Source of the DNA: an uncultured candidatus Brocadiaceae bacterium
GTDB lineage: Bacteria > Planctomycetota > Brocadiia > SM23-32
Length of the DNA stretch: 35,610 bases
Direction of reading: 5' to 3'
Assembly: GCA_964534775.1 (NCBI GenBank)
Contig: CAZHPE010000005.1
Span: 1 to 35,610, forward strand
The translations under genes were made by a program, and so were the position numbers. Under the pieces are notes generated by a model. It ran no database searches. It was not told the DNA's origin and saw nothing but the letters and a program-made list of their open reading frames with translations. Of this stretch, positions 12,410 to 33,896 are shown in pieces; the stretch's first letter is position 1, and each line of letters starts with the position of its first letter.

Positions 12410-12544
12410 GGTGATGCGGTGGTGCTGATCGGGGACGGCTCCCATAACCTCGACCCGCCCGATCCGCTGGATGCGGCGGCCATGCTGGCCGAGCGCGGGG
12501 TGCCGCTCTACACCGTGGGGATGGGCCGCGAAGAGGTGGGAGGG
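12410..12544 (+). pseudogene. Short fragment resembling the C-terminal part of a VWA (BatA-like) domain
   Basis: 'GDAVVLIGDGSHNLDPPDPLDAAAMLAERGVPLYTVGMG' fits the VWA pattern 'vvLlTDGe.n.g.dp..aa..a...gv.iytiGvG'. There is no MIDAS-containing upstream portion and the flanking translation is junk. Confidence 0.3.
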
Positions 12545-12656
12545 CGCATGGCTCTTTGCACTGTTCCTATGCGCTCTCGGGGCCGAGCGGGGCGTACGCA
12601 GGTGGAAGGGGCTTGTCTGAACGCGCGGCGCTCCGTCGTAGAGGAAGGCGGAGGTT

Positions 12657-14495
12657 CTATCCCCCCTCGCCGTTGCCCTTGTCTTCCTTCGGGCCCGGCA
12701 CCTTGCCTGCGCCGGGCCGAAGGGCGGCCGGCTCTCGCAGTAGCCTCATGGACTCATCGACGTAGAGGCGGTCCTGCGGAGGCAACAGGTGGTAGAGTTG
12801 TTTGACCAAGTCCGGGGCGAATCCCGCCCGTCCCGCGAAAATGTCTTGCAGGGCGAGCTGTCGCAAGCCTTCGACGTCGATCCTGTTCCTCTCCGTGGGG
12901 TTCGACGCGCTGTTGTACCTCTCCGCGAAGTCAGAGGCCATTTCACGGCAGTCGCTTGACTCCTGCTCCATGAGCCGGGCCGCGAAGAAGTAAGACCGGT
13001 TCAGGAGCGAGCCCACGAGTGTGCGGATGGCTGCCGGGGCCATGCCCTCGAACCGTTCATTGAGGTCATCGAAGACGAACTGATGAACACCCACCGCTGC
13101 CGTCCCCGCCTTGCCGTACCTGTCGAAAAGGTACCTCGGGAACTTCTCCCTGAGGCGATCAAGATACTTCTCGGCCTTCGGTACGTCCCCCATGAAGTAG
13201 AACTCCGAAACGATCTTTACGAGGAAGAACTTGTAGCTGTCCCCGATGCCAATGGTCCATCGCGCACCCGGCTTTTCGGTTGAGTCTGCGTACCGTTCCA
13301 GCAGCTCATCATATTGCTTGATCATCCTGTCTGTGAAACGGTAGTCCGGCGCCATTCTGGACATCAGGATGCCATGCTGATCGAAAGTGAGCCGACCGTT
13401 CGTGACAAGTTTCTGCAGAGAGCCATATATGATCCGGTCGTGCTGGATGTCGCCGTACTCGAGGTTGAGCACCTTCTTGATCCACTCGGGATCATCGATA
13501 CCCGTTAGGCCCCGCTCTTTCATCAGGCGGAGGCGGAAGGCTCTGGCCTGCTCCCGCCCCAACTCGGCCCAGTAGATGGCGTGCGCGTAGGGCGTGCGCC
13601 AGTCCAGGGGCCCGTAGGCGTCCTCCCCGCCGTACATCAGTATGAGCATCTTCTTCGGATCTAACTTCAGATCCTCAAGCCGCCGAGCCCGCGCAAAAAG
13701 CCCGATTATGCTGAAACCGTGCGGGTCGGCCTCGATCAACTCCAGCGCCGGTTTTGGGATGGCGCTTCTGTTGCGATAGTAGGTGAAGTGCCGCATCGCG
13801 CCGTCCTCGAGCCTCTCGAATGGATCGAACCCCGCTTCCACGAGGGCGGCATAGTACTCCTCAAGCTTGGGGGATGCCTCCAGAAACTCGCTGCTCGTGG
13901 CAGGAACCCCGCTCAGGACGGTAAGGACATCTCTCGCGTCCGGCAGCGGGAGGATCTCGTGCATGCTGAGTCCCAACTCCTGCTTGTAATGGAAGTGGGC
14001 ATCATCGAGATTCTTGCCGATCTTGTGCTCGTAGATCCAGGCGAGGGAGAAATACAGCTCCGGGTTGGTCGGGTTGTTAGGTATGCCCTTCTCGCGCAGG
14101 ATCTCGATGCCCTTCTGCACCCACGGCCATCGGGAGTTCAGGTCCGGGATCTCCGCCGTGATGTTGTAGGCCATGTTCCAGGAGTTGAAATCCCAGACCG
14201 CCGCGAAGTTCGGTTCGAGGCGGCAGGCGAGATCGGCCAGTTGCACGATCTCGAAGAACTTCCCCTCCTGCTTGAGCTGCTCCATGCGGATCCACACTAT
14301 GTCCACAACGATCCCGCGAAACGCCCCCAGCGCCGTTGTGGCCAGCACCACGCCGGGCGTAACACCCCTGACGGGAGCGCTGGTCAGGTCGTGCTTGGTC
14401 TGCATGCGGTAGAGCGGCTTGACCCGACCGCCTGCCGCCGCAAAAAACGCAACCGTCACCGCCAGGATCACTAGCCGTCTTGCCATGGCATCCAA
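12657..14495 (-). CDS. Hypothetical 612-aa exported or membrane-anchored alpha-helical protein (last gene of the membrane cluster)
   Basis: Long ORF with a protein-like, low-Arg composition. The N-terminal 'MARRLVILAVTVAFFAAAGG' looks like a signal or anchor. I recognise no family motif. The gene sits 18 nt downstream of the permease. Confidence 0.75.
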   Translation of the reverse strand: MDAMARRLVILAVTVAFFAAAGGRVKPLYRMQTKHDLTSAPVRGVTPGVVLATTALGAFRGIVVDIVWIRMEQLKQEGKFFEIVQLADLACRLEPNFAAVWDFNSWNMAYNITAEIPDLNSRWPWVQKGIEILREKGIPNNPTNPELYFSLAWIYEHKIGKNLDDAHFHYKQELGLSMHEILPLPDARDVLTVLSGVPATSSEFLEASPKLEEYYAALVEAGFDPFERLEDGAMRHFTYYRNRSAIPKPALELIEADPHGFSIIGLFARARRLEDLKLDPKKMLILMYGGEDAYGPLDWRTPYAHAIYWAELGREQARAFRLRLMKERGLTGIDDPEWIKKVLNLEYGDIQHDRIIYGSLQKLVTNGRLTFDQHGILMSRMAPDYRFTDRMIKQYDELLERYADSTEKPGARWTIGIGDSYKFFLVKIVSEFYFMGDVPKAEKYLDRLREKFPRYLFDRYGKAGTAAVGVHQFVFDDLNERFEGMAPAAIRTLVGSLLNRSYFFAARLMEQESSDCREMASDFAERYNSASNPTERNRIDVEGLRQLALQDIFAGRAGFAPDLVKQLYHLLPPQDRLYVDESMRLLREPAALRPGAGKVPGPKEDKGNGEGG

Positions 14496-14513
14496 CCCGC
14501 CTTGCGACGATTT

Positions 14514-16223
14514 CTATAGGATCATACGCGCCAGTTCACGCTTGCTGTAGAACAGCGTTGCCAGGAGCATGAAAACTGCGCCCCAACAGAACACGAGGGC
14601 CGCCATCGCCCGGCCCACATAGCCCCATCCCACGGCCCGGCCGTTCACCAGGTCGCCGATGGGGTTGAAGCGGGCGAACTGCGGCACGCAGTAGCACAGG
14701 GCCGCCAAGGCCTGGGTGAGATGGGTCGGCTCCCTGTAAGGGGCCACCACCCAGGGAGCCAAAAGCCCGGCTATGAACACGGCGCCTACCAGCAAGCTCG
14801 CAACAGGCAGGGAGAGGGCGGCCCCAGCCATGATCGAGATCGCGGCCAAGAGCACGATTTGGCACAGTACGATGACGAGCGAACGGTAGTAGTTCGGTAG
14901 AAAGCCCTCGGTCCGCTGCATCAGCTGGAGCCCGCCGTCAGGTGTAAAGAAGACGGTGCCGGGCCGGGAGTTGACAAAGGCCACGTATAGCGCACCGTTC
15001 GGGTCCACCAGCGGCATGGTTTCGGTCTCAGAGATCGGCACGGCGCCGGGCAGCGATAACTCCTGGAAGGCCTTGCACACGTAAGTGCGGATGGGAAAAC
15101 TGTGGATGAGCTTGGTCTCCGGCTTCTCCGGCTTCGGTGTCCCCGGTGGGGGCGGCATCTCGTGATGGACCTCCCAGTGGCCAGTCACCTTCTTTGGTGC
15201 GTCGGGTTCGAACCGCAAGGGCATAAAGCGCAGGAAGATCGGCAGGGCGGGGTCGGGCTTCAGACCATCGAACCGCCACATCTTCTTGGACATGCCCTTG
15301 ACGCTCATGTATTCGTTGCGCAGCCTGCTGCGCATATCCCGCCGGGTCAGATCGATGGTAACCCGCGCCTGTAGCATGCCCCGCGCGCGCAACTCTTGGA
15401 TGTGCTTATCCACGACCTCGTCGAAGTCCGGGACCAGGTGCTCTACCCGACGGCGCGTGACAAGAACCTCTTCGCGCGCCTGCACGATGCTCTTTTGCGC
15501 TCTGCCCCACTCCAGGGCCGGAAGGTGCGCAAAACCCCTGTCGCGCACCACGTGCAGCGCCAGGCCGTAGACGGCCCCGCCCATCAGGAACATGATGGTC
15601 GAACACAGGATGGTCACCCCAAGCAGCTTACCCACCAGGTATTGCCAGCGGGCCAGCGGCTTGGGGTCCAGCACGTGGATATGCCCGCGGTCAATCTCGC
15701 CGCAGACCGAGGCTGTGCACAGGAATACCGCCACCAGCGACTGCAGCACCTGACCCAGCGTTAGGGCGTAGGTTATGACGATCTGGACCTGGCTCTTCAC
15801 GTTGCCCTCGGTCTTCAGTATGAACGGCAGCGAGGGCATGAGTACGATGAAGAAGATCAGCAAAACGACTATGACTTTGCGGTTGATGGCCTCGATGATC
15901 ATCTTGCGCGCCACGGCCCAGATCAGCCCCCATCGCCGAATGATCGGCCACGCCAGCAGGCCCGCCGCTACGAAGCACCACCCCCAGGCCAGCGCCGAAA
16001 TCGGGATGCCCCGGGACGAAAAGAACGCTCCGGGGTCGGCCCATATCTTCTGCGCTACCTCAGCAATGCCCCGGAACCAGAAGTAGAGCAGCGGCAGCAG
16101 AAAGGCAAGCAGCAACGCCCCCATCACCTCCGGGGCCAGCCGCACAAGCCACCGCACGGCCGCCTTGAACTGTCCCACGAGCCATCGCACGCCGCCAACA
16201 GCCCCGTAGAGTATGTTTCTCAT
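14514..16223 (-). CDS. ABC-2-like transporter permease with a ~200-aa non-membrane insertion
   Basis: 569 aa with multiple TM helices at both ends and a soluble central region (about residues 230-440). The ATG overlaps the stop of the upstream ABC ATPase (ATGA). Confidence 0.7.
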   Translation of the reverse strand: MRNILYGAVGGVRWLVGQFKAAVRWLVRLAPEVMGALLLAFLLPLLYFWFRGIAEVAQKIWADPGAFFSSRGIPISALAWGWCFVAAGLLAWPIIRRWGLIWAVARKMIIEAINRKVIVVLLIFFIVLMPSLPFILKTEGNVKSQVQIVITYALTLGQVLQSLVAVFLCTASVCGEIDRGHIHVLDPKPLARWQYLVGKLLGVTILCSTIMFLMGGAVYGLALHVVRDRGFAHLPALEWGRAQKSIVQAREEVLVTRRRVEHLVPDFDEVVDKHIQELRARGMLQARVTIDLTRRDMRSRLRNEYMSVKGMSKKMWRFDGLKPDPALPIFLRFMPLRFEPDAPKKVTGHWEVHHEMPPPPGTPKPEKPETKLIHSFPIRTYVCKAFQELSLPGAVPISETETMPLVDPNGALYVAFVNSRPGTVFFTPDGGLQLMQRTEGFLPNYYRSLVIVLCQIVLLAAISIMAGAALSLPVASLLVGAVFIAGLLAPWVVAPYREPTHLTQALAALCYCVPQFARFNPIGDLVNGRAVGWGYVGRAMAALVFCWGAVFMLLATLFYSKRELARMIL

Positions 16224-17461
16224 GTGTCAGTGTCCGAATCGTCCCTGTCGCCGCCTTCGCTGCCGTCCTCGATGAGATCGTCAAGCACCTCGTGCCGCAC
16301 GCCGACTTCGGTGTCTTCGACCGGCTCGAGTTCCAGCTCGGTCTGGCTCTCCTGCCGCCCGGCTTCCTCGGCGCCTTCGACCAAGTCCTGAAGTACCCCC
16401 GTATCGGGTCCCGACACCATTGCCACCGGCTTCTCAGGGGCCGGCTCCGTGGCCGCTGCTCCTTCCTGCGCCGCCGCATCCTGCCCTGCCGCCACCAGCC
16501 CTTGCACGAGCTCGTCCCCCGCCGCCTCTTCCGTCCCACCTGTGAGGAACTCGGCGGCCGGGCCGCCGGCCTCTGCGCCCGCCGTGACGAGTCTCTCCCG
16601 CCGGGCCTGCTTGACCACGTCCAGAAAAAACTCTTCCAGCTTCTGGGCGGGCGAGCCAACCTCGATGTTAGCTTCCGCGCCTGCGTCGGCGTGAATAAGG
16701 TCCGTTATCTGCTTCACTACGACCTCGGAAACCTTTGGGCTGCGGATCTGCATCATCTCCTGGCGCACGAGCAGCTCGTTTACGTCCCCAAGGGCCCTTG
16801 CCTTACCTCCGTAGAGTATGCAGACCCGGTCGCAGGTTTCCTCCACGTCGGCCAGAAGGTGGCTGCACAGCAGGATGGTCTTCCCCCGGCCGCGAAGCAT
16901 CGTGATCAGGTCCTTCATCTCCCGTGTGCCGATCGGGTCCAGGCCGGAGGTCGGCTCGTCCAAGATCAGAAGGTCAGGGTCGTTTATCAGGGCCTGCGCT
17001 AGGCCGATGCGCCGCGCCATGCCTTTGGAGAACTCACCTACCGGGCGGCGCCGCGCCCTCTCCAACCCCACCATGCCGATCAGGGAGGCAACGCGCCTGG
17101 TGCGCTCCCCCCGAGAGAGACCGAACAGGCGCCCGAAGAAATGCAGTGTCTCCTCGGCATTCAGGTAACTGTAGAGGTTTGACTCCTCGGGCATGTAGCC
17201 CAGACTCTTCTTGAGCTCGATGTTTCTGGGGTCCCTGCCGAACACAAACGCGCGCCCCCCCGTTGGGAAGAGCAGCCCCAGTAGCAGGCGCACCATGGTG
17301 GTCTTGCCGGAGCCGTTCGGCCCGAGAAGCCCGAGGACCTCGCCCCTCCTCACCGTGAGGTCGAGCGAGTCGAGGGCGCGCACGCGACCCCGTCCCCAGA
17401 AGTCCTTGTAGACCTTGGTCAGCCCGATGGTCTCGATCACGTTTTCGATTTGTTTCGCCAC
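16220..17461 (-). CDS. ABC transporter ATP-binding protein with a ~170-190-aa acidic low-complexity C-terminal tail
   Basis: Walker A 'GPNGSGKTT', signature 'FSKGMARR', Walker B 'LLILDEPTSGLD'. I chose the GTG start at 17461 (VAKQIENV), 13 nt after the P-type ATPase stop; the longer ORF to 17545 would overlap that gene. The tail ends '...DDLIEDGSEGGDRDDSDTDT'. Confidence 0.88.
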   Translation of the reverse strand: MAKQIENVIETIGLTKVYKDFWGRGRVRALDSLDLTVRRGEVLGLLGPNGSGKTTMVRLLLGLLFPTGGRAFVFGRDPRNIELKKSLGYMPEESNLYSYLNAEETLHFFGRLFGLSRGERTRRVASLIGMVGLERARRRPVGEFSKGMARRIGLAQALINDPDLLILDEPTSGLDPIGTREMKDLITMLRGRGKTILLCSHLLADVEETCDRVCILYGGKARALGDVNELLVRQEMMQIRSPKVSEVVVKQITDLIHADAGAEANIEVGSPAQKLEEFFLDVVKQARRERLVTAGAEAGGPAAEFLTGGTEEAAGDELVQGLVAAGQDAAAQEGAAATEPAPEKPVAMVSGPDTGVLQDLVEGAEEAGRQESQTELELEPVEDTEVGVRHEVLDDLIEDGSEGGDRDDSDTDT

Positions 17462-17474
17462 GGTCGACGATTCC

Positions 17475-19460
17475 TCAGGCGGTGCGGGCAGCCGTAGCGT
17501 CGCTCTCGGCAGCCGCTGGGTTATGGGGCAACAGGTTCTCGCCAAACCGCACCAACCTTGCGCTGTTGAAGATGACGATGAAAGAGCTCACAATCTGCAC
17601 GGCGGCGGCCTCGATCGGGCCAATAATCTTCAGCGCTGCCAACACGGCGAAGCCCAGCATGAAGACGAGGCCAATGCCGAGGTTCTGCAAGATGACGCGC
17701 TTGAGCTGGCGCGAGAGCCGCACCAACCACGGCAACCGCCCCAAGTCGTTGCTCATCAGGGCGATGGATGCGCTGCCGATGGCCACGTCGCTGCCGGCCG
17801 CCCCCATGGCGATGCCCAGGTCGCCGGCGACCAGCGCGGGGGCATCGTTGACGCCGTCACCGACCACTGCCACCGTGTTGCCTTCCGCACGCATCGCTTC
17901 GACCAGACGCAATTTGTGCTCGGGCAGACACTCCGCCTGCACTTCGGTGCAGCCCAGCTCGCCCGCCACCTTTCTGGCAACGCTCCAGCGATCGCCCGTG
18001 AGCATCGTCAGCCGCCGCACGCCCAGCTCCTTGAGCTCGGAGGTGGCCTGCTGCGCTTCGGGCCTGGCACGGTCCTCCAGCGCGATCCACCCGATACAGC
18101 GCCCGGCCCGGCCCACAAACAGCAGGCTCATGCCTTCGACTTCGGGGATCTTGTCGCGCGGGACGGTACTCATGTCGACACCCTGATCTTCCAGCCACTG
18201 GCCGCGGCCGACCAACGCTTCCTCCCCCCCCACCAGACCCTGAACGCCCCTTCCGGCGACCTCCTGCACACCGCTGGCCTCCAGCGGCATGATGTTGGCC
18301 CGTTCCGCCACGCCCACCACGGCGCGCGCGACGGGGTGACGGGAGTTCTGCTCCAGGGTAAGCGCCGTCTGCAGGAGCGTCGCGCCCTCCACCTGCGGCG
18401 CCGGCGATAGCCGCGTCACGGTCAGCTCGCCCGTGGTCAGCGTTCCGGTCTTGTCGAAAACCACCGCCGTAATGCTGCCGGCCACCTCCAGGTGGCCTAC
18501 GTTCTTCACAAGCACGCCAAGCCGTGCCGCCGCCGTGAGGCCGGCCACCATGGCCGTGGGCGTGGCCAGCACGAAGGCGCACGGGCAGGCCAGCACAAGC
18601 AGCGTGATGGCGAGCTGAACGTCACCGTCGGTCATCAGGTAGACCACGAAGACGATCATCAGAACCACGGGCGCATACCAGATGGCGTAGCGGTCGACCA
18701 GTTGCATCAGGCGTGTCTTGGTGGCCTCGGCCTCGAGGATCAGTCGCTTCACCTTGCCGAGAGTAGTGTCCTCGCCGGCGCGGATCACCTCGACGACGAT
18801 GGCGCCCGTGAGGTTGTGCGTGCCGGCGAAGACCTCCTCACCGGCCGCCTTGTCGGCAGGGAGGGACTCGCCGGTGATGGTGGCCTCGTCCATGGTGGTT
18901 TCGCCTTCGACTATGCGCCCGTCGGCTGGCACGCGGTCACCAGGGCGCAGGCGAATGCTGTCCCCGGGCTTCAACTGGCTCACATCTACTATCTCCCCGC
19001 CGACGAGTTCGGCCTTACGGGGTTGGAAGCGCATCAGTTGTTCCACGCTCGTGCGGGCGCCCTCAGCAGTGCGTTGCTCGATGAGGGTAGCCAGGAGCAT
19101 GAAGAGCGCCACTATGCCGGCCACGCGGTAGCCTGCGCCGCTGCCCACGGAGCCGGGCTCGCTCAGGGAAAAGGCCGCCAGCACTGCCAAGGCCACCAGC
19201 ACGGACATGTGCATCCTCCCGCTCGCCATCTCCTTCACGGCGGCCCGCACGATGAATGCGCCCAGCAAGATGGCGCCCAGCATGGCGCTGAAGGCCCCGA
19301 TCTCCTGCTGCCCCGGGAACAGGAACTTGTCGGCGAGCCAGGAGTTCAGGATGAGTACGCCACCGATGAAGGTGATGACGAGCTGGCTGTGCAAACTGCC
19401 GAAACGCGTTCGTTCGGCAGCGCCGCCTTCGATTGCGCTGGATGCCTGTACCTGGGACAC
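17475..19460 (-). CDS. P1B-type (heavy-metal) P-type ATPase lacking an N-terminal metal-binding domain, with a non-canonical TM ligand signature
   Basis: 'ITGESLP', 'ACPCAFVLATP' (CPC), 'DKTGTLT', 'SRHPVA' (HP) and 'GDGVNDAP'. Four TM helices precede the actuator domain and no CxxC/HMA domain is present. GTG start with a strong upstream AAGGAGAG. Confidence 0.9.
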   Translation of the reverse strand: MSQVQASSAIEGGAAERTRFGSLHSQLVITFIGGVLILNSWLADKFLFPGQQEIGAFSAMLGAILLGAFIVRAAVKEMASGRMHMSVLVALAVLAAFSLSEPGSVGSGAGYRVAGIVALFMLLATLIEQRTAEGARTSVEQLMRFQPRKAELVGGEIVDVSQLKPGDSIRLRPGDRVPADGRIVEGETTMDEATITGESLPADKAAGEEVFAGTHNLTGAIVVEVIRAGEDTTLGKVKRLILEAEATKTRLMQLVDRYAIWYAPVVLMIVFVVYLMTDGDVQLAITLLVLACPCAFVLATPTAMVAGLTAAARLGVLVKNVGHLEVAGSITAVVFDKTGTLTTGELTVTRLSPAPQVEGATLLQTALTLEQNSRHPVARAVVGVAERANIMPLEASGVQEVAGRGVQGLVGGEEALVGRGQWLEDQGVDMSTVPRDKIPEVEGMSLLFVGRAGRCIGWIALEDRARPEAQQATSELKELGVRRLTMLTGDRWSVARKVAGELGCTEVQAECLPEHKLRLVEAMRAEGNTVAVVGDGVNDAPALVAGDLGIAMGAAGSDVAIGSASIALMSNDLGRLPWLVRLSRQLKRVILQNLGIGLVFMLGFAVLAALKIIGPIEAAAVQIVSSFIVIFNSARLVRFGENLLPHNPAAAESDATAARTA

Positions 19461-19548
19461 TTCCCTCTCTCCTTTTTCTTCTTCAGATCGTCTCGTAGTC
19501 CATTTGCCGCCTTCGGCCGCGGCACTAGGGGCCGGGCACGCTCGCCTC

Positions 19549-20856
19549 TCAGTGCTGGTGTCCGCCCGCTTCCGTCGCCCCAGGCGCGCTCAACCGCTGC
19601 TGGGCCTCCTTGAGCCGATTCTTGACTGTGCGCGCCACGGGGGAGAGCTGTATTTCCAGCGTCTGACCGGGCCCCAAGACGTACGGGTCCTCGGAGGCGG
19701 CGAACAGTTCCACGATCATGCGGTTGTAACGCGTGCTGCGCAGGATGCTGGCCGCCTCAGGCGACTTGCCATAGGCCTCGCCAAGAGTCTGGACCATCTC
19801 TGCGTCGGCCTTTGCGGTGTTGACGAGCCGTGTGGCATAGCTCTCCGCCGCGCGCACGATCCGGCTCGCGCTGCTGCGCGCGCGCGTCAGGATCTGTTGC
19901 TCCTCGTTGTCGGCCTCGTGGATGCGTTGGGCCATCTGTGCCTGGGCGTCCCGGGCGGCGTCGAACGCCGCCTGGACTACCGGGGGCACCACCGGTCCCA
20001 GCGTAAGCTCGACGCCGGCGACCTTGATGCCGAGGGACTTGCTGTTGGCCCGGCGGTAGGCATCCAGTTCTGCCGTGATGCGGTTATGGATCTCTTGCTG
20101 AAGGGCAATTGTGGCACCGCCCGGGGTCCTGCGATACTTCTGCCGAACGTCCTCGATGGTCCAGGATCCGATGGTCTCGATGGTGCTCTGAACGGTAAAG
20201 CGCCTCAGCAACCACTCAGGGTCCTTCCGGGGCTCCCCGGGTTCCGGATCGGGGCCGATGAAGCCGAATGCATAGTCAAGCAGATCATCATCCTCGCCGC
20301 CTGCGGCGTAGCGCACCTTCAACCTGAGGTGGACGATGTTGGCATCGCCCGTGATGAGAAACCCGTCCGTCTTCACATCGACCGGGCGCTCGCTCGCAGA
20401 GATCCCCTGCTCGGCCATGAGCTCCATCTCCCTTTCGGTGCGGGCTCGCCTGAAGGGCATGAACTCCATATTCAGTTCAAGCGGCTCCTCTTTGGTGGAC
20501 ACGCGCACCACTTCTTCGCCCGGCCACAGGAAATGATATCCGCTCCCGGGCTCTATTACGTAGGACCCGTCCACCTTGACCGGCCGGCCGAACCGGAGCT
20601 TTATGTTCACCTCGTTCAACTGCACCCAGAACAGCCTCTGGTAGACATAGAAGCCCACCAGACCGGCCATCGCAACCAGCATGATCACGAAGGCCACGCA
20701 CGCCGCTTCGGAAATGGCGCGGGTGCCGATGTCCGCGGTGGCGTCATCTTCCGCGTCGTTCGGTTGCCCGACTTGCTCCCCGTCCTCGGGCGGCGCCTGG
20801 GGGCTTTCCTCCTCGCCGGCGCTTTCGGGTTCCGTCCAGTCGTCGGACATCGTCAT
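19549..20856 (-). CDS. SPFH/Band-7 protein, HflK-like, with an acidic N-terminal tail
   Basis: A single N-terminal TM helix ('ACVAFVIMLVAMAGLVGFYVY'), then an SPFH core including 'FLITGDANIV' and a coiled C-terminal region. The start overlaps the upstream gene stop (ATGA). An alternative ATG at 20850 has better SD spacing. Confidence 0.8.
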   Translation of the reverse strand: MTMSDDWTEPESAGEEESPQAPPEDGEQVGQPNDAEDDATADIGTRAISEAACVAFVIMLVAMAGLVGFYVYQRLFWVQLNEVNIKLRFGRPVKVDGSYVIEPGSGYHFLWPGEEVVRVSTKEEPLELNMEFMPFRRARTEREMELMAEQGISASERPVDVKTDGFLITGDANIVHLRLKVRYAAGGEDDDLLDYAFGFIGPDPEPGEPRKDPEWLLRRFTVQSTIETIGSWTIEDVRQKYRRTPGGATIALQQEIHNRITAELDAYRRANSKSLGIKVAGVELTLGPVVPPVVQAAFDAARDAQAQMAQRIHEADNEEQQILTRARSSASRIVRAAESYATRLVNTAKADAEMVQTLGEAYGKSPEAASILRSTRYNRMIVELFAASEDPYVLGPGQTLEIQLSPVARTVKNRLKEAQQRLSAPGATEAGGHQH

Positions 20857-21836
20857 TCCTCCCTTTCCTGCCCGGCATCGACGAGGGTGCCTTCGGCCCG
20901 GCCCTTGGCCTGACCGCCGCCGTCCGAATCGCTTCTCGTCAGCTCGTTGAACGGAGGCGTGAGCACATCGATGACCAGCGTCAGAGGCGTCCCTGCCTTT
21001 GTGGCGTTCCGGGAAATGGTCGTCAAGCTCTTCATGTTAGCCAGGAAGATGGCGAGCTCCGGTTCTTTGGCAAACACCGGGTTGAATTGGGATGCCTCCT
21101 TCTCAGCCTTCGCTTTGATCTGCTCGGCCTTCAGGGCTGCCTGTCCACGGATTACGTCGGCTTTCCTGAGGGCCTCGCTCCTGATGGCCTCCCGTTCGCT
21201 TTTGCCTTGCGCGATATACTCGGCGGCCCGAGCCTTACGTTCTTCCTGCATCCCCTCCAGGACTTTGCTGGTCTCCAATGGCGGTATGGCCATCTGCCGC
21301 ACGCCGAGCGATACGACCTTCAGGCCGTATCCGCGCTCATCCACGGCCAGGCGGACCGCCTCGTCGATGTCGGCCCTGATCTGATCGAACCGAAGCTCCT
21401 CCGGGTTTGCGCTCACCAGGTTCTTGAAATCGGCCCTGCCAATACGCGCGGACGTTTCCTCCGCGATGATGTCCTTGAGTTCCTGCGCCGCTTCCTCTTC
21501 GCTTTCCAGGCTCTTTACGAACTGGCGGGGGTCGGCGATTTGCCAGGCCGCATACATCCCGACGATGACTTGCCGCTGGTCCTGCAGTTGCGTCTGCACG
21601 GCCGGGGTTTCCAGCACACGAACGCCCTTGTCGTACTTGACGACCTTGTCGAAAGGGCGCGTGAACCGGAACTTCCAGCCAGCCTCGTTCTTGTCCATGT
21701 TGACTATTCGGTAGATCGCGCCGCGACGGTAGTGGACGGCAACCTCATTGCGCCGCACCTGGAAGGTGAACAGATAGACCACCAGCAGGGCGACGACGGC
21801 GGCCACGGCGATAAACGTTATCTTGCTGCTCTTCAT
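20853..21836 (-). CDS. SPFH/Band-7 protein, HflC-like
   Basis: N-terminal anchor 'ITFIAVAAVVALLVVYLF', then 'VRRNEVAVHYRRG...' as SPFH core and an Ala/Glu/Lys-rich coiled region. 327 aa, with 4-nt overlaps at both ends. Confidence 0.8.
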   Translation of the reverse strand: MKSSKITFIAVAAVVALLVVYLFTFQVRRNEVAVHYRRGAIYRIVNMDKNEAGWKFRFTRPFDKVVKYDKGVRVLETPAVQTQLQDQRQVIVGMYAAWQIADPRQFVKSLESEEEAAQELKDIIAEETSARIGRADFKNLVSANPEELRFDQIRADIDEAVRLAVDERGYGLKVVSLGVRQMAIPPLETSKVLEGMQEERKARAAEYIAQGKSEREAIRSEALRKADVIRGQAALKAEQIKAKAEKEASQFNPVFAKEPELAIFLANMKSLTTISRNATKAGTPLTLVIDVLTPPFNELTRSDSDGGGQAKGRAEGTLVDAGQEREE

Positions 21837-23812
21837 CGGAAATTCTCCTCGAGATTGATGCCGCCGGTAATGCCGGGCTGGGTTGTGGTCAGGTCAAGAT
21901 CCACGCCCACGTCCTTGCGAACGGGCAGCACATAGACCCTGTGTCCCCGCAGAATGTCTTCCAGCGCCCTAAGATACAGGCGATGAAGATAGACGCGGGG
22001 GGCCATACGATAGGTCTGGGCCTGGATGGCAAAACGCTCGGATTCGGCGCCGGCGACCTTCGAGAGGCGGGTGGCGAATTCGCTGGCCTCGCCGAGGATC
22101 CGCGCCTCCTCGCCCCTGGCCTCCCCGACGATTCTCGCTGCCTGACCCCGCCCAATGTGCTTGAGCTTCTCCATCTCCTGATAGGCGCTACCCACGCCTT
22201 CGAAGGCCCTGGCTGTTTCGTGCGGCGGATACACCACCGGAATGCCGGCGTAGACGATCTCCAGACCCATCCCGCGCTCGTGCAATTCCTTCTGCAGGTC
22301 GTCGCGGAATTGCTCGGAAATCTCCCCGCGCTTCACGTTCATCCACTCCAGGAAGTCTTGCCGCGCGGCTAGGCGCGTCAGCACGGCGTAGGCCAGGTTC
22401 TCAAGCAGCCGTTCCGGATCACGGTGATCGTAATAGAAGCGGTAGGCCGCCTTCTCATCGACCCCGCGGCCGTCGGGCGTTCTCTTGACGCGGTAGTGAA
22501 CCTGCGCCTCCAAGAAAGCGATGTTCACTGGCGGCGCATCGGTGTCTGCGCCCGCCTCCTCGCTGCCGGGGGACAGGAAGCTCACCTCGTAGCCGACGCT
22601 TGGTTCGATGTGCACCTCACCCCAGAGGAGGTAGTTGGGGTCGGTCATCTCCATTACGCCCGGCGGCAGGCGCCCGCCCCTCTCTCCCCTCTTGTATCGG
22701 TGCTTGCCGATGTCCTTGCGGAAGAGCCTGTAGGCCGGCACTTTCCTTGCCGTTTGGATAGGCCACGGCGCTTTGAATCGGACCCCGGAGGTGTAGACGG
22801 TGGCTTGGAACCCGCGCTCGGCGTCGGCCTTTGTCAGTATCGGTTTGCCGAACTGCTCGATGAAGGCGATCTCGTCCGGGTGCACTATCACCAAGCACGA
22901 GAGCAGCCACAAGGCAATGATCTGGACGAGGAAGAGCGGGATGATCGCGCGGCCCATGAACCGGTAGAACCACGTCTCCGAGACCTTGAAGCCGAACTGG
23001 TAGTCGAGCGTGGCCGCAATGGTCTTGAGCATGCTGCCGGGGGCGGCGATCAGCCCCAGAAGGCGGCTGTCGTAGTGCGGACGCACCTCCTGCCCGGGAA
23101 CCCTCGGGCGATAGATGTCCAACACCATGCTCAGAACGATCTCCACGGCGATCAGCCCCATCACGCCCGGCAGCAAGAAGGCCATCCCCGCTTCCAGCCA
23201 TCCGACACCGAACTGGACCATCACTAGCGAGCAAACCACCAGGAAACTGGATGCCGCGTTGCCGAGCATGAACGAGCCGGAGGCCCGCAGCAGCCTGAAC
23301 CGGGTGCTCTGGGCCAGCGCCACGCAGTACTTGCCGACCAGAAGCCCGAAGAAGGCGATCCCAGCCAGCCCTCCCACGCCCACTAGGGGATCCTTGATGG
23401 CCCCGATGTCGGGCGCCTCGCGCAGCGCGGTGCGCAAGCTCCAGTAGCAGAAGAACGCCAGCAGACCGCTTAGCACGACCGCGATGCCGGGCACGACGTA
23501 GCGCTCGAAAATGACCAAGCCGGCATGCTCTCGCATGCGCTCCACTTCCTGTTCGTCGAACAGCTCATCGCTCAGGCGCGTGCGCTGGAGCTCCTCCAGC
23601 TCCTCGCGCTCTTCCTGCGCCCGGCGTCGCTGACGCCCGTGCAGCATCACGACAATCCACAGCAGTACACCCGGCACCAGGAACCACGCCTGGGCCCGCA
23701 TCGCCAGGCTGCCGGTAATCACATACAGCGCGTAGGCCACGCCGGCAAATGCGACCTGCACCAATAGCCCGAACAACGCCGTGTGCTCCAAACGCTTCTC
23801 TCTAAGAGCCAT
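21833..23812 (-). CDS. Fusion protein: polytopic N-terminal membrane domain (~300 aa, ~7 TM) plus C-terminal SPFH/HflK-like domain
   Basis: The N-terminal helices are interrupted by the charged segment 'RQRRRAQEEREELEELQRTRLSDELFDEQEVERMRE'. The C-terminal 'IAFIEQFGKP...', 'FLEAQVHYRV' and 'ARIVGEARGEEARILGEASEFATRL' are HflK-like. Confidence 0.75.
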   Translation of the reverse strand: MALREKRLEHTALFGLLVQVAFAGVAYALYVITGSLAMRAQAWFLVPGVLLWIVVMLHGRQRRRAQEEREELEELQRTRLSDELFDEQEVERMREHAGLVIFERYVVPGIAVVLSGLLAFFCYWSLRTALREAPDIGAIKDPLVGVGGLAGIAFFGLLVGKYCVALAQSTRFRLLRASGSFMLGNAASSFLVVCSLVMVQFGVGWLEAGMAFLLPGVMGLIAVEIVLSMVLDIYRPRVPGQEVRPHYDSRLLGLIAAPGSMLKTIAATLDYQFGFKVSETWFYRFMGRAIIPLFLVQIIALWLLSCLVIVHPDEIAFIEQFGKPILTKADAERGFQATVYTSGVRFKAPWPIQTARKVPAYRLFRKDIGKHRYKRGERGGRLPPGVMEMTDPNYLLWGEVHIEPSVGYEVSFLSPGSEEAGADTDAPPVNIAFLEAQVHYRVKRTPDGRGVDEKAAYRFYYDHRDPERLLENLAYAVLTRLAARQDFLEWMNVKRGEISEQFRDDLQKELHERGMGLEIVYAGIPVVYPPHETARAFEGVGSAYQEMEKLKHIGRGQAARIVGEARGEEARILGEASEFATRLSKVAGAESERFAIQAQTYRMAPRVYLHRLYLRALEDILRGHRVYVLPVRKDVGVDLDLTTTQPGITGGINLEENFR

Positions 23813-23853
23813 GATTCCTATTCGTCCTCCCGATCGTAACGCCGAAACGCCAC

Positions 23854-25272
23854 CTATATGATCTCGCGCCCCTCAAACAGGAACGTCGCAAAACCCACCA
23901 TGGCCCCGCACCACAGAGCGGCGTACAGGGCCGCCTTGCCCACGTAGGGCCACGGCACGTGGGGGTCGGGACGAACGAGCTGGTCAGCCACCCAGAAGAG
24001 CTGAAATGACGGCAAGACGTGATAAGCGGTCCAAGCCGTCCACTTCCACCCTGTCCTGAGCCCGTAGCCCCAGCCTTTCTCGATACGCACTCCCGTGTAG
24101 TCCTGATTCGCCTCGTCCGATGCAAGCCGGGGGTAGGACCGCTTGTCCGGGCGGAAAACATATTCAGGAAGCCTCGGCGACACGCTGCCCCAACCGTCCC
24201 TCTTCACCCACGCGTCGTAGATGCCTCTGTCGTCGGTCGCGACACTCCCCGGCAGGCCGCTCATTATGACTCCTGCAATGCCCTCTCCCTCCGCCGTGCG
24301 CACCTGCCCGGAAACCTTTACCCTCTCCGCCTCGCTGTAGTCAACCTCCCAGCTCCCCCAAGGGGTGTCCACCGCCCATCCGAAGAGGTAGTGCGAGACC
24401 ATGCCGACAAAAAACACGGCGGTGCACACCAGCACGCCAGCCACCATGTTGAGTCGGGTGGAGGATGCCACCGCCACCGCCGACAGCATCCACACGCCCA
24501 GCGCGACCAGCACGGCTGCCGCAACCACGGGCCCGGCGTTCTTCTCCGCAAAGAGCTCCAACCCGTTCAGCGTCAAACTCGTGCCCTTGTGCCAGTCATG
24601 TTCGATTCCCACCACGCAGACGGCCAGAGTGGTAACCGTGTAGGTCACCAGTGCGGCCTTGACGGACGTGGAGGTGAAGTTCCAGCGGTAGAAGTAGTTC
24701 GCATACGTCGCCAAGGCCAGCGCCACTGCCATCGAACCCGCCTGGGCGACGAGAACCGGCCAATCCGGCTTCCAGCCCACGTCGTGAGGAACGTCCTGTC
24801 GCACGGCCAGAATGAGCATGATCCCCAGCAGGTAGCTGGCCGCCCACATCGCCCCGCTCACGCCCAAGAACTTGCCCGTCACCAGAATCAGCCGGCTCAC
24901 CGGCTTGCTTATGACGGCGCCGGCGGTCTTGACCTCGATCTCCCGGCTTACCACCTGCGTCGCGCTCACGACCGAGAGGATAAGGCCCACCATGAAAATC
25001 GTCCCGAGCCCCATGTCCACCAGGAGCTTCAGATCCGACCCGGTTTCCATGCTGAAAGCGGTTATCAGGGGGCTCAACGCTATCAGCACCATCCCCACAA
25101 GCAGCAAGATGCCGTACGCGGGCTGACGTGTGATCTCAGTGAACGCGTTCTTCGCTATGGCGTAGAGGCGGCTGAACAAATCTCCTGATCCTTTACCATG
25201 ACGCTTCTTGACCCTGTCATCGACGCTGGCAGCCGCATCCGTCGGCCCTGCTCGGCTTTCGCACGGACGCAT
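23854..25272 (-). CDS. ABC-2-like permease with an inserted CarboxypepD_reg-like beta-sandwich domain
   Basis: 'AIAKNAFTEITRQPAYGILLL...' is a typical ABC-2/NosY-like N-terminus. The insert 'VKVSGQVRTAEGEGIAGVIMSGLPGSVATDDRGIYDAWV' fits the carboxypeptidase-regulatory-like pattern (v.G.V.d..G.pi.gA.V......tD..G.Y). More TM helices follow. Confidence 0.7.
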   Translation of the reverse strand: MRPCESRAGPTDAAASVDDRVKKRHGKGSGDLFSRLYAIAKNAFTEITRQPAYGILLLVGMVLIALSPLITAFSMETGSDLKLLVDMGLGTIFMVGLILSVVSATQVVSREIEVKTAGAVISKPVSRLILVTGKFLGVSGAMWAASYLLGIMLILAVRQDVPHDVGWKPDWPVLVAQAGSMAVALALATYANYFYRWNFTSTSVKAALVTYTVTTLAVCVVGIEHDWHKGTSLTLNGLELFAEKNAGPVVAAAVLVALGVWMLSAVAVASSTRLNMVAGVLVCTAVFFVGMVSHYLFGWAVDTPWGSWEVDYSEAERVKVSGQVRTAEGEGIAGVIMSGLPGSVATDDRGIYDAWVKRDGWGSVSPRLPEYVFRPDKRSYPRLASDEANQDYTGVRIEKGWGYGLRTGWKWTAWTAYHVLPSFQLFWVADQLVRPDPHVPWPYVGKAALYAALWCGAMVGFATFLFEGREII

Positions 25273-25592
25273 GAACCTCCAACACGATGTGTGTCACAAC
25301 TGAGTGCTCAACCATAAGTTGTGCTGTCACCCGCTGGGTTCTGCGGTGCGACGTCTCCCGTCGGCGCTCGCTTAGTGCAACGTTGTACTCGTAATGTTCA
25401 GATTTCCCTGAACAACTTTGCTTGGTCCACTGGCCCGCGGCGTAAAAACCATGCCTCCGTTCTCGTGTCAACCGGCCGCATAGTGCGGCGTAGCATTGGT
25501 CATCCGCAGGGGTCTATGGCAAACTCGCGGGCCATGCCGGCCGCGGCGGCGGGCGATGCTGCTGGCGCGACAGGCGGCTCGCCTGAGATAGC

Positions 25593-33854: not shown

Positions 33855-33896
33855 GATTGCCTTCCGTCTCGCGGCCGGCGCGCAGCGCGTCGGCGC

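Follow-up and report, generated by a model that had tools for sequence, protein, structure and literature searches.

An eight-gene SPFH, P1B ATPase and ABC cluster of Planctomycetota and Verrucomicrobiota as a candidate transition-metal assembly

Eight minus-strand genes, here g1 to g8, form a conserved cluster in a 35,610-nucleotide stretch of DNA from an uncultured candidatus Brocadiaceae bacterium (contig CAZHPE010000005.1; this whole stretch is called the window). We think, with a probability of roughly 0.55, that the cluster is the PVC version of a module composed of an SPFH trio and an HmtA-type P1B ATPase, and that its products would form one inner-membrane assembly that moves a transition metal. 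The core of SPFH trio and P1B ATPase is already known but mechanistically uncharacterised, and what the PVC genomes add to it is a NosFY-like ABC system together with the g8 protein (Table 1).

Table 1. Features of the cluster and its upstream region in the window
Feature	Position	Strand	Length	Description
g1	23854-25272	minus	472 aa	NosY-like ABC-2 permease with lineage-specific insert
g2	21833-23812	minus	659 aa	6-TM N-domain fused to HflK-like SPFH part
g3	20853-21836	minus	327 aa	HflC-like SPFH protein, one N-terminal TM helix
g4	19549-20856	minus	435 aa	HflK-like SPFH protein, N-terminal tail of about 50 aa
g5	17475-19460	minus	661 aa	P1B-type heavy-metal ATPase, 8 TM helices
g6	16220-17461	minus	413 aa (GTG start)	NosF/DrrA-type ABC ATPase
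g7	14514-16223	minus	569 aa	NosY-like ABC-2 permease with soluble insert
g8	12657-14495	minus	612 aa	membrane-anchored all-alpha TPR-like solenoid (predicted)
Upstream non-coding region	25273-25592	minus		probable promoter/operator

Layout and inheritance of the cluster

From g1 to g8, the junctions measure 41, -4, -4, 88, 13, -4 and 18 nt, and the three -4 overlaps are of the ATG/TGA type, i.e. ATGA. An earlier sequence-only reading had listed the same eight open reading frames, and its coordinates and spacings were reproduced exactly, while the three overlaps it described are seen in the sequence. Most of its domain calls also stood in Pfam and NCBIfam HMM searches, which gave Band_7 in g2, g3 and g4, E1-E2_ATPase and HAD in the P1B ATPase g5 and ABC_tran in g6; the permease calls likewise held, and only a CarboxypepD_reg-like insert in g1 did not. 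The longest reading frame of g6 extends to 17545, but the start at 17461 is backed by alignments with orthologs, in which residue 1 is the first aligned position. L001, an 89%-identical relative, does not share the g1 ATG at 25272, so that the true start of this gene may lie downstream.

In species-representative genomes, 318 related loci were found. The order g1-g8 is kept from Brocadiia to Verrucomicrobiales, and thus in two phyla, Planctomycetota and Verrucomicrobiota; the cultured Anaerohalosphaera lusitana carries the cluster as well. At 30 of the 43 species-representative loci with enough flank, g3-g4-g5-g6-g7-g8 follow each other in order, and every junction is tight (medians 11-90 nt, more than 93% under 200 nt, in 48-77 loci). 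Chance is far from explaining the arrangement, whose order this neighbourhood survey recovered in dozens of distantly related genomes, and the co-inherited unit that had been postulated was borne out. The suggestion that it was possibly acquired was not: the GC3 of the cluster (0.79-0.85, against 0.82-0.90 in the flanks) is like that of the right flank, the flanking genes are housekeeping genes (uvrD, ilvD, pfkB, rseP, dxr, ispG), synteny with other Brocadiia extends to the upstream neighbours orf452 and pfkB, and the cluster is spread over two phyla. The GC contrast claimed earlier is weaker than stated, with 60.5-66.6% in the cluster genes against 67-72% in the left flank and 62-68% in the right. 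Judged from this sequence evidence, the eight genes are a real operon that is vertically inherited, and no acquired island.

The upstream non-coding region is probably the promoter/operator of the cluster. It contains the palindrome TGTTCAG-N6-CTGAACA at 25395-25414 and, at 25374-25389, a second, imperfect one of 16 nt, AGTACAACGTTGCACT. Both lie inside the longest near-identity stretch of the alignment with L001, which has indels elsewhere, and we infer a function of these palindromes in the putative operator. FtsH and NfeD are absent from the window, as had been stated before, and the 10-kb surroundings of 81 loci contained no FtsH-like open reading frame. Neither absence of FtsH carries much weight, because hflKC and ftsH are unlinked genes in E. 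coli as well.

The SPFH trio, the P-type ATPase and their relatives

In the g2 protein, a 6-TM N-domain (residues 1-232) is fused through a juxtamembrane loop (234-283) and a TM anchor to an HflK-like SPFH domain and its coiled coil; the protein gives a Band_7 match and a sub-threshold TIGR01933 (hflK) match. For its N-domain, Foldseek searches with the AF2 model (pLDDT 79) give the CDF transporters YiiP and ZnT1 (E about 5e-4), and for its C-terminal part HflK, HflC and stomatin; weak PF01545 matches over TM1-TM2, under the Pfam cut-off, occur in 8 of 26 family members. The model suggests a CDF-like fold for the N-domain. It is a 6-TM bundle as in the CDFs (YiiP/FieF, ZnT1), but the cytoplasmic CDF C-terminal domain is missing and the transport-site residues are unconserved, with a glycine instead of YiiP D49 in 70 of 78 sequences. 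This lack of conservation at the canonical CDF metal site, together with a negative hhalign comparison with E. coli FieF, was counted against a metal role. Relatives of the N-domain without the SPFH fusion were not found by phmmer among 1.8 billion proteins. Conservation in g2 is 100% for the residues E224, R235, R237 and R250 and for the motif YQFGFxxSxTW.

For g3, Band_7 gives an E of 1e-14 and TIGR01932 (hflC) 74 bits against a cut-off of 134 bits, and for g4 Band_7 gives 5e-10 and TIGR01933 76 bits, again below cut-off; over all three proteins, 74-90 bits stand against hflK/hflC equivalog cut-offs of 134-159. The presumably cytoplasmic N-terminal tail of g4 is acidic in the window copy and His/Cys-rich in other lineages, with His-rich tails in 15 of 64 orthologs. 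With the E. coli HflK/HflC cage round FtsH (PDB 7VHP, 7WI3, 9CZ2), the trio shares the SPFH fold, the adjacency of paralogous genes and the order of a single TM anchor, a periplasmic SPFH domain and a long coiled coil. In contrast to that pair, there are three paralogs, one of them with the 6-TM N-domain, the PVC genes are linked to transporters and score under the equivalog cut-offs, and a partnership with FtsH is putative.

The ATPase g5 reaches 512 bits with TIGR01525 and, among NCBIfam subfamilies, scores highest with the Cd/Zn efflux subfamily TIGR01512 (442 bits). It carries the DKTGT, TGES, GDGVND and CPC motifs, and an HMM search found neither an HMA nor a ferredoxin-like metal-binding domain, in agreement with the earlier call of a P1B ATPase lacking this domain. 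The Y-N and M residues of CopA and the K and D residues of ZntA are absent. The TM8 consensus of the family reads LHNxGS, and the window copy has Q622 in the His position. Among g5 orthologs, 38 of 57 have a His-rich N-terminal stretch; apart from g4, such stretches are found in at most 4 of 51 sequences for the other six proteins of the cluster. The window copies of g5 and g4 have no such tails, and this and Q622 were counted against the metal-platform reading.

The HNxx(S/T) motif in the last TM helix is shared with CtpC of the mycobacterial CtpC/PacL1 'effluxosome' and with the ferrosome P1B-6 ATPase FezB, and CtpC also has CPC. FezB has SCA where g5 has CPC, just 6 of 57 g5 orthologs have the RxR motif that FezB and CtpC share, and the fez genes are absent here. 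The CtpC and FezB pumps need or are linked to a membrane scaffold with a His-rich metal-binding tail (PMC13460109; bioRxiv 10.1101/2020.01.10.902569); the scaffold in the PVC cluster would be SPFH and not PacL (DUF1490).

In Paraburkholderia, Klebsiella and Rhizobium replicons, a module of the order long HflK / HflC / SPFH / P-type ATPase occurs, from which the ABC genes are absent while the P-type ATPase stays with the SPFH trio. Its three SPFH paralogs correspond one-to-one to g2, g3 and g4: in a 3x3 profile matrix of PVC against proteobacterial proteins, the diagonal gives E values of 1e-25 to 1e-39 and the off-diagonal 1e-7 to 1e-17. Homology between g2 and the long HflK-like protein of Burkholderiaceae spans the full length (hhalign 99.96%, E 5e-39), g3 matches the second SPFH gene (hhalign E 1.3e-39; BLASTP 27% identity, full length), and g4 has its best match in the third (E 4.1e-25). 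The g5 family and the module ATPases have ACPCA, LLHNxxT/S, HNxx(S/T) and His-rich N-termini in common, and both lack the ferredoxin-like metal-binding domain. Overall BLAST scores place g5 no closer to the Paraburkholderia ATPase (median 301 bits) than to AfCopA (320 bits), which was counted against the metal reading, and the orthology of the ATPases thus rests on motifs and context. On these comparisons, g2-g3-g4-g5 are homologous to the proteobacterial four-gene module.

We equate this module with Pseudomonas aeruginosa PA2439-PA2438-PA2437-(PA2436)-PA2435 (hmtA), an SPFH triplet and P1B ATPase locus (PMC4542158, PMC8531726, PMC11761036, PMC13086221), on the basis of published gene order and annotation and not of sequence, the link being drawn via plasmid-borne proteobacterial copies. 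The statement that no operon with an SPFH triplet among transporters had been described is therefore wrong for the core: the gene order of the hmtA locus (PA2439-PA2434, with PaFlo5, PaFlo6, PaFlo7 and HmtA) and of the Burkholderiaceae, Rhizobium and Klebsiella copies is like that of g2-g5, with PA2436 as an extra small gene in P. aeruginosa. Zn depletion induces PA2435 and PA2437-PA2439, and the PA2439 promoter is bound by Zur (PMC4542158, PMC8531726, PMC11761036). HmtA is reported as an importer of Zn and Cu (PMC8456098, citing Lewinson 2009). Deletion of paFlo5-7 gave no more than subtle phenotypes, which were counted against the metal-platform reading, and a zinc-limitation test is unreported (PMC13086221). 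The Paraburkholderia copy adjoins znuABC-like genes and the genes of a GTP-binding protein and of PCuAC. Compared with the hmtA-type module, the PVC version has four more conserved genes (the NosY-like g1 and g7, the NosF-like g6 and the TPR-like g8), its juxtamembrane motif is TLDYQFGF instead of RYGIDLRQNW in Burkholderiaceae, and the four PVC loci inspected have no flanking zinc-uptake or other zinc genes, Zur-type regulator or recognisable Zur context, which again was counted against a metal role.

The ABC unit and g8

The Pfam ABC2_membrane_2 matches of g1 (E 5.6e-6) and g7 are just under the Pfam cut-off, and their ortholog profiles lead to NosY with an E of 0.025 for g1 and 2.4e-11 for g7 (7O0Y_D). 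The two permeases are paralogs of each other (hhalign profile-profile probability 99.4%, E 1.4e-21). In g1, residues ~300-415 are a lineage-specific insert of some 110 aa; it is absent in most orthologs (median length 341 aa), and the HMM search found no Pfam match in it, CarboxypepD_reg included. The soluble insert recognised earlier in g7 was recovered by a TM scan as about 215 aa that lie between TM3 and TM4 (roughly residues 225-440) and are free of TM helices; it is conserved in 50 orthologs and probably periplasmic, and the Brocadiia proteins have an additional N-terminal extension of 95 aa. The ATPase g6 (ABC_tran E 1e-29) has its top PDB score with ABCA-family lipid transporters, and among single-NBD proteins its best match is NosF (181 bits; next 142 bits). 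Its acidic tail, also noticed before, comprises about 120 C-terminal aa, is kept across orthologs (median 23% D/E) and contains three repeated LxxLV-type motifs. The unit thus resembles NosDFY(L), the copper-delivery ABC machine for N2O reductase (PDB 7O0Y), but the PVC cluster is without the NosD beta-helix protein, NosL and nosZ, its permeases are a heterodimer-type paralog pair, and the g7 insert and the g6 tail are its own.

No Pfam or NCBIfam family was found for g8 by HMM searches, as its first description had anticipated, and its homologs are all annotated 'hypothetical'. The AF2 model (pLDDT 82, pTM 0.74) predicts an all-alpha solenoid, for which Foldseek gives generic TPR matches alone (TM-score <0.25). 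One or two hydrophobic helices are found at the N-terminus, and the earlier label 'secreted' was not confirmed. The protein has conserved Trp/Tyr-rich motifs. With 587 clusters the family is near the size of that of g2 (637), and it appears essentially PVC-restricted and confined to this cluster.

Proposed function and competing explanations

An SPFH scaffold that organises transporters, as proposed from the sequence alone, is still the best reading, and we infer its physical assembly with the pump and the ABC unit. The proteins g2, g3 and g4 would together build a ring or cage of the HflK/HflC type on the periplasmic membrane face, and the polytopic N-domain and invariant juxtamembrane loop of g2 would dock client proteins. 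The client would be g5, the CPC/HNxx(S/T) P-type ATPase, with a divalent metal as cargo that may be Zn-like or possibly Cu, Co or Ni, and the N-terminal tails of g5 and g4 may receive or donate this metal. By analogy with NosDFY, ATP could drive the periplasmic insert domains of the NosFY-like unit (g1 and g7 with two copies of g6), which would hand metal to or from the g5 pump within a confined space. The g8 protein may be an adaptor that possibly binds the acidic LxxLV-repeat tail of g6. Because of the homology with HmtA, uptake under metal limitation is the leading direction. Counted in favour of a metal link were the His-rich g5 and g4 tails, NosY and NosF as the nearest solved relatives of g7 and g6, the CDF-like g2 N-domain, the znuABC-like neighbours in Paraburkholderia, the Zn-depletion induction and Zur binding in P. 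aeruginosa, and the reported Zn and Cu import by HmtA.

The same assembly could also work outward as an efflux or metallation platform, which we regard as unlikely: g5 would export metal for detoxification or for the loading of periplasmic proteins, as CtpC does with PacL1, and the NosFY-like unit would pass it on to periplasmic acceptors. His-rich cytoplasmic N-terminal tails are typical of efflux pumps, and the tails of the g5 and g4 orthologs are probably cytoplasmic. NosDFY, a relative of g6 (through NosF, among single-NBD structures) and of g7 (through NosY), serves in periplasmic copper delivery. Besides the preference of g5 for the Cd/Zn efflux subfamily, characterised P1B ATPases are nearly all exporters, and CPC with HNx(S/T) defines the Zn-exporting, scaffold-dependent 'P1B-6-like' CtpC (PMC13460109). 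However, it is zinc depletion and not excess that turns on the homologous Pseudomonas locus, and HmtA reportedly works as an importer (PMC4542158, PMC8456098); the Paraburkholderia copy adjoins zinc-uptake genes, and HMM searches found no PacL (DUF1490), NosD or NosL homologs in the cluster.

It is rather improbable that g2-g4 are HflK/HflC-type modulators of an FtsH encoded elsewhere, which would control the turnover or insertion of transporters without any transport compartment. The nearest solved and HMM relatives of the three proteins are indeed HflK and HflC, an interaction of PA2438 and PA2439 with HflB (FtsH) was suggested by the authors of a Pseudomonas proteomics study (PMC11761036), and scaffolds may shield bacterial metal-ion transporters from degradation according to an effluxosome review (PMC13460109). 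Against this, the trio scores well under the hflK/hflC cut-offs, P. aeruginosa possesses a separate canonical hflK-hflC pair beside its trio (PMC13086221), and the FtsH-free surroundings of the 81 loci add weak evidence. Such quality control would also leave unexplained why the g2 loop is invariant, why g4 has His-rich tails and why the linkage to a P1B ATPase is strict. A non-metal cargo seems very improbable; in this reading the substrate of the ABC-2 exporter would be a lipid or a polymer of the envelope, a lipid microdomain would be organised by the SPFH proteins, and the gene of the P-type ATPase would be a passenger. ABC-2 (type V) exporters commonly carry lipids and glycans, and the ABCA-family top score of g6 and the Trp/Tyr-rich motifs of g8 would fit, as would the link of SPFH proteins to membrane microdomains (PMC2636767, PMC10434171). 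However, no other gene of the cluster is as well conserved as g5 (48-67% identity), and the proteobacterial modules, which are without the ABC genes, keep the g5-type ATPase beside their SPFH trio.

The eight-gene operon and its conservation

The eight minus-strand ORFs (g1 to g8) lie exactly at the coordinates that the sequence-only reading had given, with junctions of 41, -4, -4, 88, 13, -4 and 18 nt, and the three 4-nt overlaps are indeed of the ATG/TGA type. HMM searches also agreed with its main domain calls. Band_7 is found in each of g2, g3 and g4, which form the SPFH trio; g5 contains E1-E2_ATPase and HAD domains but no HMA domain, and reaches 512 bits with the heavy-metal P1B model TIGR01525 (cut-off 346); g6 contains ABC_tran; and the permeases g1 and g7 match ABC2_membrane_2 at about 26 bits, slightly under the cut-off. 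For g8, no HMM match was obtained beyond faint TPR signals. NfeD gave no match, and the eight tightly packed genes leave no space for an unassigned ORF, so that the cluster is not of the SPFH-NfeD operon type. No FtsH-like ORF occurs in the window either, as had been noticed before.

Features of the window and of the cluster
Feature	Position	Strand	Observation
ORF	3600-4754	+	GC3 0.55, GC1 0.88; probably a shadow ORF
ORF	8683-9393	-	GC2 0.81; probably a shadow ORF
VWA-like ORF	12254-12805	+	weak VWA match, E 0.04, especially ~12410-12532
g1 to g8	25272 down to 12657	-	eight-gene cluster
Acidic tail of g6	16220-16590	-	three LxxLV-type repeats
g6	16220-17461	-	ABC ATPase
g5	17475-19460	-	P1B ATPase
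g4	19549-20856	-	HflK-like SPFH protein
g3	20853-21836	-	HflC-like SPFH protein
g2	21833-23812	-	N-domain and HflK-like SPFH part
Palindromes upstream of g1	25374-25414	minus-strand sense	candidate operator sites
452-aa ORF	26682-28040	-	faint PHP-domain match only
rseP-dxr-ispG (GcpE)	30898-35312	-	envelope and MEP-pathway housekeeping block

The closest relatives of g2 are found in 'Candidatus Brocadiia' and other Planctomycetota MAGs, and a scan with one genome per species yielded 318 loci encoding a g2 relative. When the eight window proteins were mapped by tblastn onto the best 80 of these 318 loci, the order g1-g2-g3-g4-g5-g6-g7-g8 was recovered in Brocadiia, Phycisphaerae, Pirellulales and Planctomycetaceae, and likewise in the Verrucomicrobiota (Verrucomicrobiales, Limisphaerales). 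Where the sequence extends 9.5 kb or more beyond g2 on its downstream side (43 loci), g3 to g8 are all in order in 30 cases, and most of the remaining 13 are without one gene at the sensitivity of tblastn. Among 68 loci, g1 is the immediate upstream neighbour in the same orientation in 50 and is divergent in 11. The intergenic distances have upper-bound medians of 11-90 nt, with more than 93% under 200 nt. Pfam-labelled, gene-called contexts contain the same eight genes within unrelated flanks, including the complete genome of the cultured Anaerohalosphaera lusitana. Loss of synteny in related genomes had been named as a reason to abandon the cluster; as the gene order is kept there, the cluster stands, and it is a deeply conserved operon rather than an island. 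Two apparent gene fusions, g4::g5 in the related locus L032 and g5::g6 in L074, are not real: the ORFs had been extended through stop codons.

Two MAG contigs with the full cluster carry labels from outside the PVC group, namely Candidatus Aquilonibacter of the Vulcanimicrobiota (L067) and Bifidobacterium (L072). Their arrangement and their identities to the window proteins resemble those of Verrucomicrobiota-labelled loci, and these labels probably reflect mis-binning or mislabelling, not a true occurrence.

The suggestion that the cluster was possibly acquired did not survive. The left flank is indeed richer in GC (67-72%) than the cluster genes (60.5-66.6%), but the gap is smaller than estimated by hand, and the right flank has only 62-68%. 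The cluster genes have GC3 values of 0.79-0.85, against 0.82-0.90 for the flanks, whose genes are housekeeping genes (uvrD, radical-SAM, M16 peptidase, ilvD, pfkB, HpcH aldolase, rseP, dxr, ispG), and the rseP-dxr-ispG block supports a core-chromosome context. Together with the conserved upstream synteny, GC3 and these flanks speak against horizontal acquisition, which was rejected. An assignment as anti-phage defence system was also discarded, PADLOC having returned generic ABC ATPase matches only. Pattern scans for terminator- and promoter-like sites inside the cluster gave no excess over shuffled sequence, and neither a tRNA nor an Rfam match was found in the window.

The SPFH trio, the P1B ATPase and the proteobacterial module

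Both g3 and g4 have Band_7/hflC/hflK HMM matches and one predicted N-terminal TM segment. In the AF2 model of g2 (pLDDT 79), a six-helix N-domain is followed by a poorly placed loop, a TM anchor, the SPFH domain and a helix of about 70 residues. The Foldseek matches of the C-terminal part are HflK, HflC, stomatin and erlin, with 7VHQ and 9CZ2 at E 1e-11, and the g2 profile matched HflK at E 7.6e-31; g2 thus shows the HflK/HflC architecture of an N-terminal TM helix, an SPFH fold and a long coiled coil at the C-terminus. Of the three, g3 resembles HflC; g4 and, in its SPFH part, g2 resemble HflK, with bit scores that stay far below the equivalog cut-offs (g2 90 and g4 76 against 159 for hflK; g3 74 against 134 for hflC). 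The three proteins are mutually very divergent.

The N-domain of g2 matches the CDF transporters YiiP and ZnT1 in Foldseek (E about 5e-4). True CDF membership was considered and rejected. Cation_efflux (PF01545) reaches 20.2 bits in g2 against a cut-off of 26.6 and is weak in 8 of 26 family members, and an hhalign comparison with E. coli FieF, in a sequence verified to be identical to 2QFI, was negative. Of the two CDF site-A positions in TM2, one is G in 70 of 78 g2 sequences, and H, F or Q occupies the second. When the N-domain was used for an exhaustive phmmer search, 836 representatives were found. Among the 150 matches listed, the domain is always N-terminal and always SPFH-fused, most proteins have about 630-870 aa, the shorter ones are likely truncated, and no classical CDF protein occurs. 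Because of the sub-threshold Pfam score, the negative FieF comparison, the unconserved TM2 sites and the phmmer relatives listed, we regard the modelled N-domain as CDF-like in its predicted fold, a weakly backed lead, and not as a CDF. What is invariant over all 78 g2 sequences is E224 in TM6 and a juxtamembrane loop comprising Y234-R-P-R, R250 and Y271-Q-F-G-F-x-x-S-x-T-W.

The catalytic motifs of g5 are present (D336-KTGT, TGES at 196, GDGVND at 534), as is C292-P-C294 in the TM helix ahead of the P-domain; C-P-C is found in 50-57 of 57 orthologs. The TM8 consensus is LHNxGSFxVxFNSARL. In P1B ATPases, the TM8 ligand is M in CopA (within MxxSS), D in ZntA (within DxG) and H in P1B-4, and TM7 provides Y-N in CopA and K in ZntA. 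His occupies, in 52 of 57 members of the g5 family, the position which we take to correspond to the CopA M and the ZntA D. The TM7 comparison with AfCopA was made with a tool, the TM8 positions for CopA, ZntA and P1B-4 being placed by motif. At the CopA Y-N positions the g5 family has F600 (56/57) followed by V or I (54/57), and as neither the CopA Y-N nor the ZntA K in TM7 is present, the family lacks the defining residues of both P1B-1 and P1B-2. The P1B-6 pattern, as in FezB of ferrosomes, combines SCA (D[Y/F]SCA in TM4) with HNxxT in TM6 (bioRxiv 10.1101/2020.01.10.902569); the g5 family shows an HNxGS-like motif, but its TM4 has CPC and not SCA. This combination matches the "P1B-6-like" pattern of the zinc-linked mycobacterial CtpC, which is described as having CPC and HNx(S/T) and as needing the membrane scaffold PacL1 (PMC13460109). 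The N-terminal RxR motif of FezB and CtpC was also looked for and can be dismissed as a family trait, occurring in only 6 of 57 g5 orthologs.

A His-rich N-terminal stretch is present in 38 of 57 g5 orthologs, and 15 of 64 g4 orthologs have a His/Cys-rich N-terminal tail, for example MSDKHDHPHHDHDHDHPHDHDH, which is presumably cytoplasmic. For none of the other six cluster proteins does the count of such tails exceed 4 of 51. The window proteins are atypical in this respect: g5 has Q622 at the His position and no His tract, although CPC is kept, and the g4 tail is acidic, not His-rich. These departures may reflect a metal shift or a relaxation in this Brocadiia lineage.

Outside the PVC group, a tblastn search with g2 against plasmids revealed the four-gene order long HflK/HflC/SPFH/P-type ATPase in three replicons, from Paraburkholderia sprentiae, Klebsiella aerogenes and Rhizobium tumorigenes. 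On the P. sprentiae plasmid (locus L085, 73-7667) the module is immediately preceded by genes encoding a GTP-binding protein, a znuABC-like transporter, a DUF2946 protein and the copper chaperone PCu(A)C, with which it forms a compact metal-acquisition island. The first gene encodes a multi-TM N-domain in all three copies, and hhalign aligned the PVC g2 family with its Burkholderiaceae counterpart at 99.96% probability (E 5.4e-39) over columns 11-642 and 25-623, N-domain included. In a 3x3 hhalign matrix, g2, g3 and g4 pair with the proteobacterial SPFH proteins 1, 2 and 3, the diagonal E values being 3.5e-37, 1.3e-39 and 4.1e-25 and all off-diagonal ones 8e-17 or weaker. Judged from these profile alignments, the three SPFH paralogs are one-to-one orthologs across phyla, in fixed order. 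The three proteobacterial ATPases have ACPCA and LLHN[VM][GS]T, are annotated without a metal-binding domain, and have a His-rich N-terminus in two of three cases. The idea that g5 is closer overall to the Paraburkholderia ATPase than to AfCopA had to be given up (BLAST medians of 301 and 320 bits, respectively); as these scores are no higher than those to AfCopA, the ATPase orthology is argued from motifs and context.

From annotation, gene order and zinc context, and not from sequence, we equate the proteobacterial copies with the PA2439-PA2435 type of P. aeruginosa, the hmtA locus. The PVC g2-g5 genes share with this type the long HflK with a polytopic N-domain, the SPFH order and, directly downstream, the P1B ATPase without metal-binding domain and with CPC and, at family level, HNxx(S/T). 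PA2439 is the first gene of that locus, and its promoter was gel-shifted by Zur (PMC8531726). The proteins of the trio/HmtA locus are increased in zinc-depleted proteomes (PMC11761036), and Zur- or zinc-responsive expression of the module is known for P. aeruginosa only (PMC4542158, PMC8531726, PMC11761036). The trio, described there as PaFlo5-7, forms a single predicted operon, and its deletion had subtle phenotypes only (PMC13086221). For HmtA, uptake is reported of Zn and Cu and not of Ag or Cd (PMC8456098, citing Lewinson 2009). The core g2-g5 is part of a module that is known but lacks a mechanistic explanation, and that became fixed in PVC bacteria together with g8 and a NosFY-like ABC unit.

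The ABC unit and a possible client of a putative SPFH cage

The permeases g1 and g7 are paralogous (hhalign 99.4%, E 1.4e-21). The profile of g7 orthologs matches NosY of NosDFY (7O0Y_D) at E 2.4e-11, that of g1 orthologs weakly at E 0.025, and g6 scores 181 bits with NosF, the best among single-NBD structures (runner-up 142). Compared with NosDFY(L), a NosY-type permease and a NosF-type ATPase are thus present in the PVC cluster, whereas the NosD beta-helix, NosL and a nosZ context are absent from all eight proteins and the flanks, g8 being all-alpha. The CarboxypepD_reg-like insert that had been read into g1 found no Pfam match even at E up to 1; the insert is lineage-specific, and the median g1 ortholog has 341 aa. 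The soluble insert of g7 proved to be a family-wide element of about 215 aa between TM segments 3 and 4, presumably periplasmic, and the acidic tail of g6 is a conserved feature of about 120 aa. This tail has three LxxLV-type repeats, DELVQGLV, GVLQDLVEG and EVLDDLIEDG, which orthologs also contain and which resemble short linear motifs for docking, with the TPR-like g8 as a possible partner.

It was claimed earlier that g8 is exported, which is unproven; the protein has one or two N-terminal hydrophobic helices, and its confident model is a membrane-anchored all-alpha solenoid (pLDDT 82, pTM 0.74) with generic TPR structures as only neighbours. That it belongs to no recognised family is borne out by its homologs, all of which are annotated as "hypothetical". 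The g8 family (587 clusters) is about as large as that of g2 (637), as expected if g8 is essentially confined to the operon.

Four independent features point to a metal role: the pump itself, the His tails on g5 and g4, the homologs in Proteobacteria with their zinc regulation and neighbouring zinc genes, and the NosFY kinship. In the most economical mechanism, every step of which we infer, an SPFH ring or cage would hold the P-type ATPase, in the PVC group it would hold the ABC unit as well, and the assembly of SPFH proteins and pump would serve as a platform that moves a metal. We give a probability of about 0.3 to the reading that an HflK/HflC-type SPFH cage of three ancient paralogs encloses the P-type ATPase, and in PVC also the ABC machine, instead of FtsH, forming a closed periplasmic metal chamber. 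Alternatively, the trio may act through FtsH. No ORF with both Walker A and HExGH was found within 10 kb in 81 loci, which is uninformative alone, since E. coli hflKC is likewise without a nearby ftsH. As to the direction of metal transport, uptake under metal limitation is favoured by HmtA and its Zur control, export by the CtpC-like motifs and the His-rich N-terminal tails, if these are cytoplasmic as we assume.

If a caged pump were confirmed, bacterial SPFH cages would have a second class of clients, independent of a protease, the cage would predate the split of Proteobacteria and PVC or have spread between them, and the cluster would encode, with its eight genes, an almost universal organ of the PVC envelope. 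The roles of bacterial SPFH proteins beyond FtsH modulation are an unsettled question, and for the hmtA-adjacent trio of Pseudomonas, which studies of the zinc regulon mention, no explanation has ever been given. We found no paper on an operon of SPFH, ABC and P-type genes or on the eight-gene arrangement in PVC, and none that describes the SPFH trio as one-to-one orthologous across phyla or its first member as carrying a polytopic N-domain. New here is the view that the trio and the P1B ATPase without metal-binding domain are one ancient cross-phylum module, as the SPFH paralogs correspond one-to-one and the ATPases have their signature motifs in common, and that in Planctomycetota and Verrucomicrobiota it is fixed, alongside a NosFY-like ABC machine, within an operon of eight genes. 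A specific client is thereby offered for an SPFH cage, and the question of what non-FtsH SPFH assemblies enclose becomes concrete and testable: the g2 loop YRPR...YQFGFxVSxTW, E224 and the His tails are motifs to target by mutation, and P. aeruginosa and A. lusitana, a cultured carrier of the cluster, are tractable hosts. The module may, in addition, shed light on how pumps of the HmtA type can run as importers.

Surroundings of the cluster

The two ORFs with odd codon-position GC have no Pfam matches and are probably shadows of genes in another frame or on the opposite strand. The "relic" reported downstream of g8 comes down to a weak VWA fragment and one weak tblastx match, nothing more, and it may be the VWA-like ORF that lies in the 630 nt separating ilvD from g8. 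In the related locus L084 a convergent VWA/GATase1-like gene occupies the same relative place, although a direct comparison of the two was not significant.

On the other side, the 452-aa ORF is a conserved upstream neighbour in 15 of the 80 mapped loci (the best 80 of 318), nearly all labelled Brocadiia or Brocadiaceae, with 55-94% identity. A pfkB gene between this ORF and the cluster is seen in the closest relatives only. Upstream of g1 there are two palindromes, TGTTCAG-N6-CTGAACA and the imperfect 16-nt AGTACAACGTTGCACT (ACAACGTTG), both inside the longest near-identical non-coding stretch shared with the 89%-identical relative L001. They are candidate operator sites. L001 does not share the g1 ATG at 25272, and the start of g1 may therefore lie further downstream.
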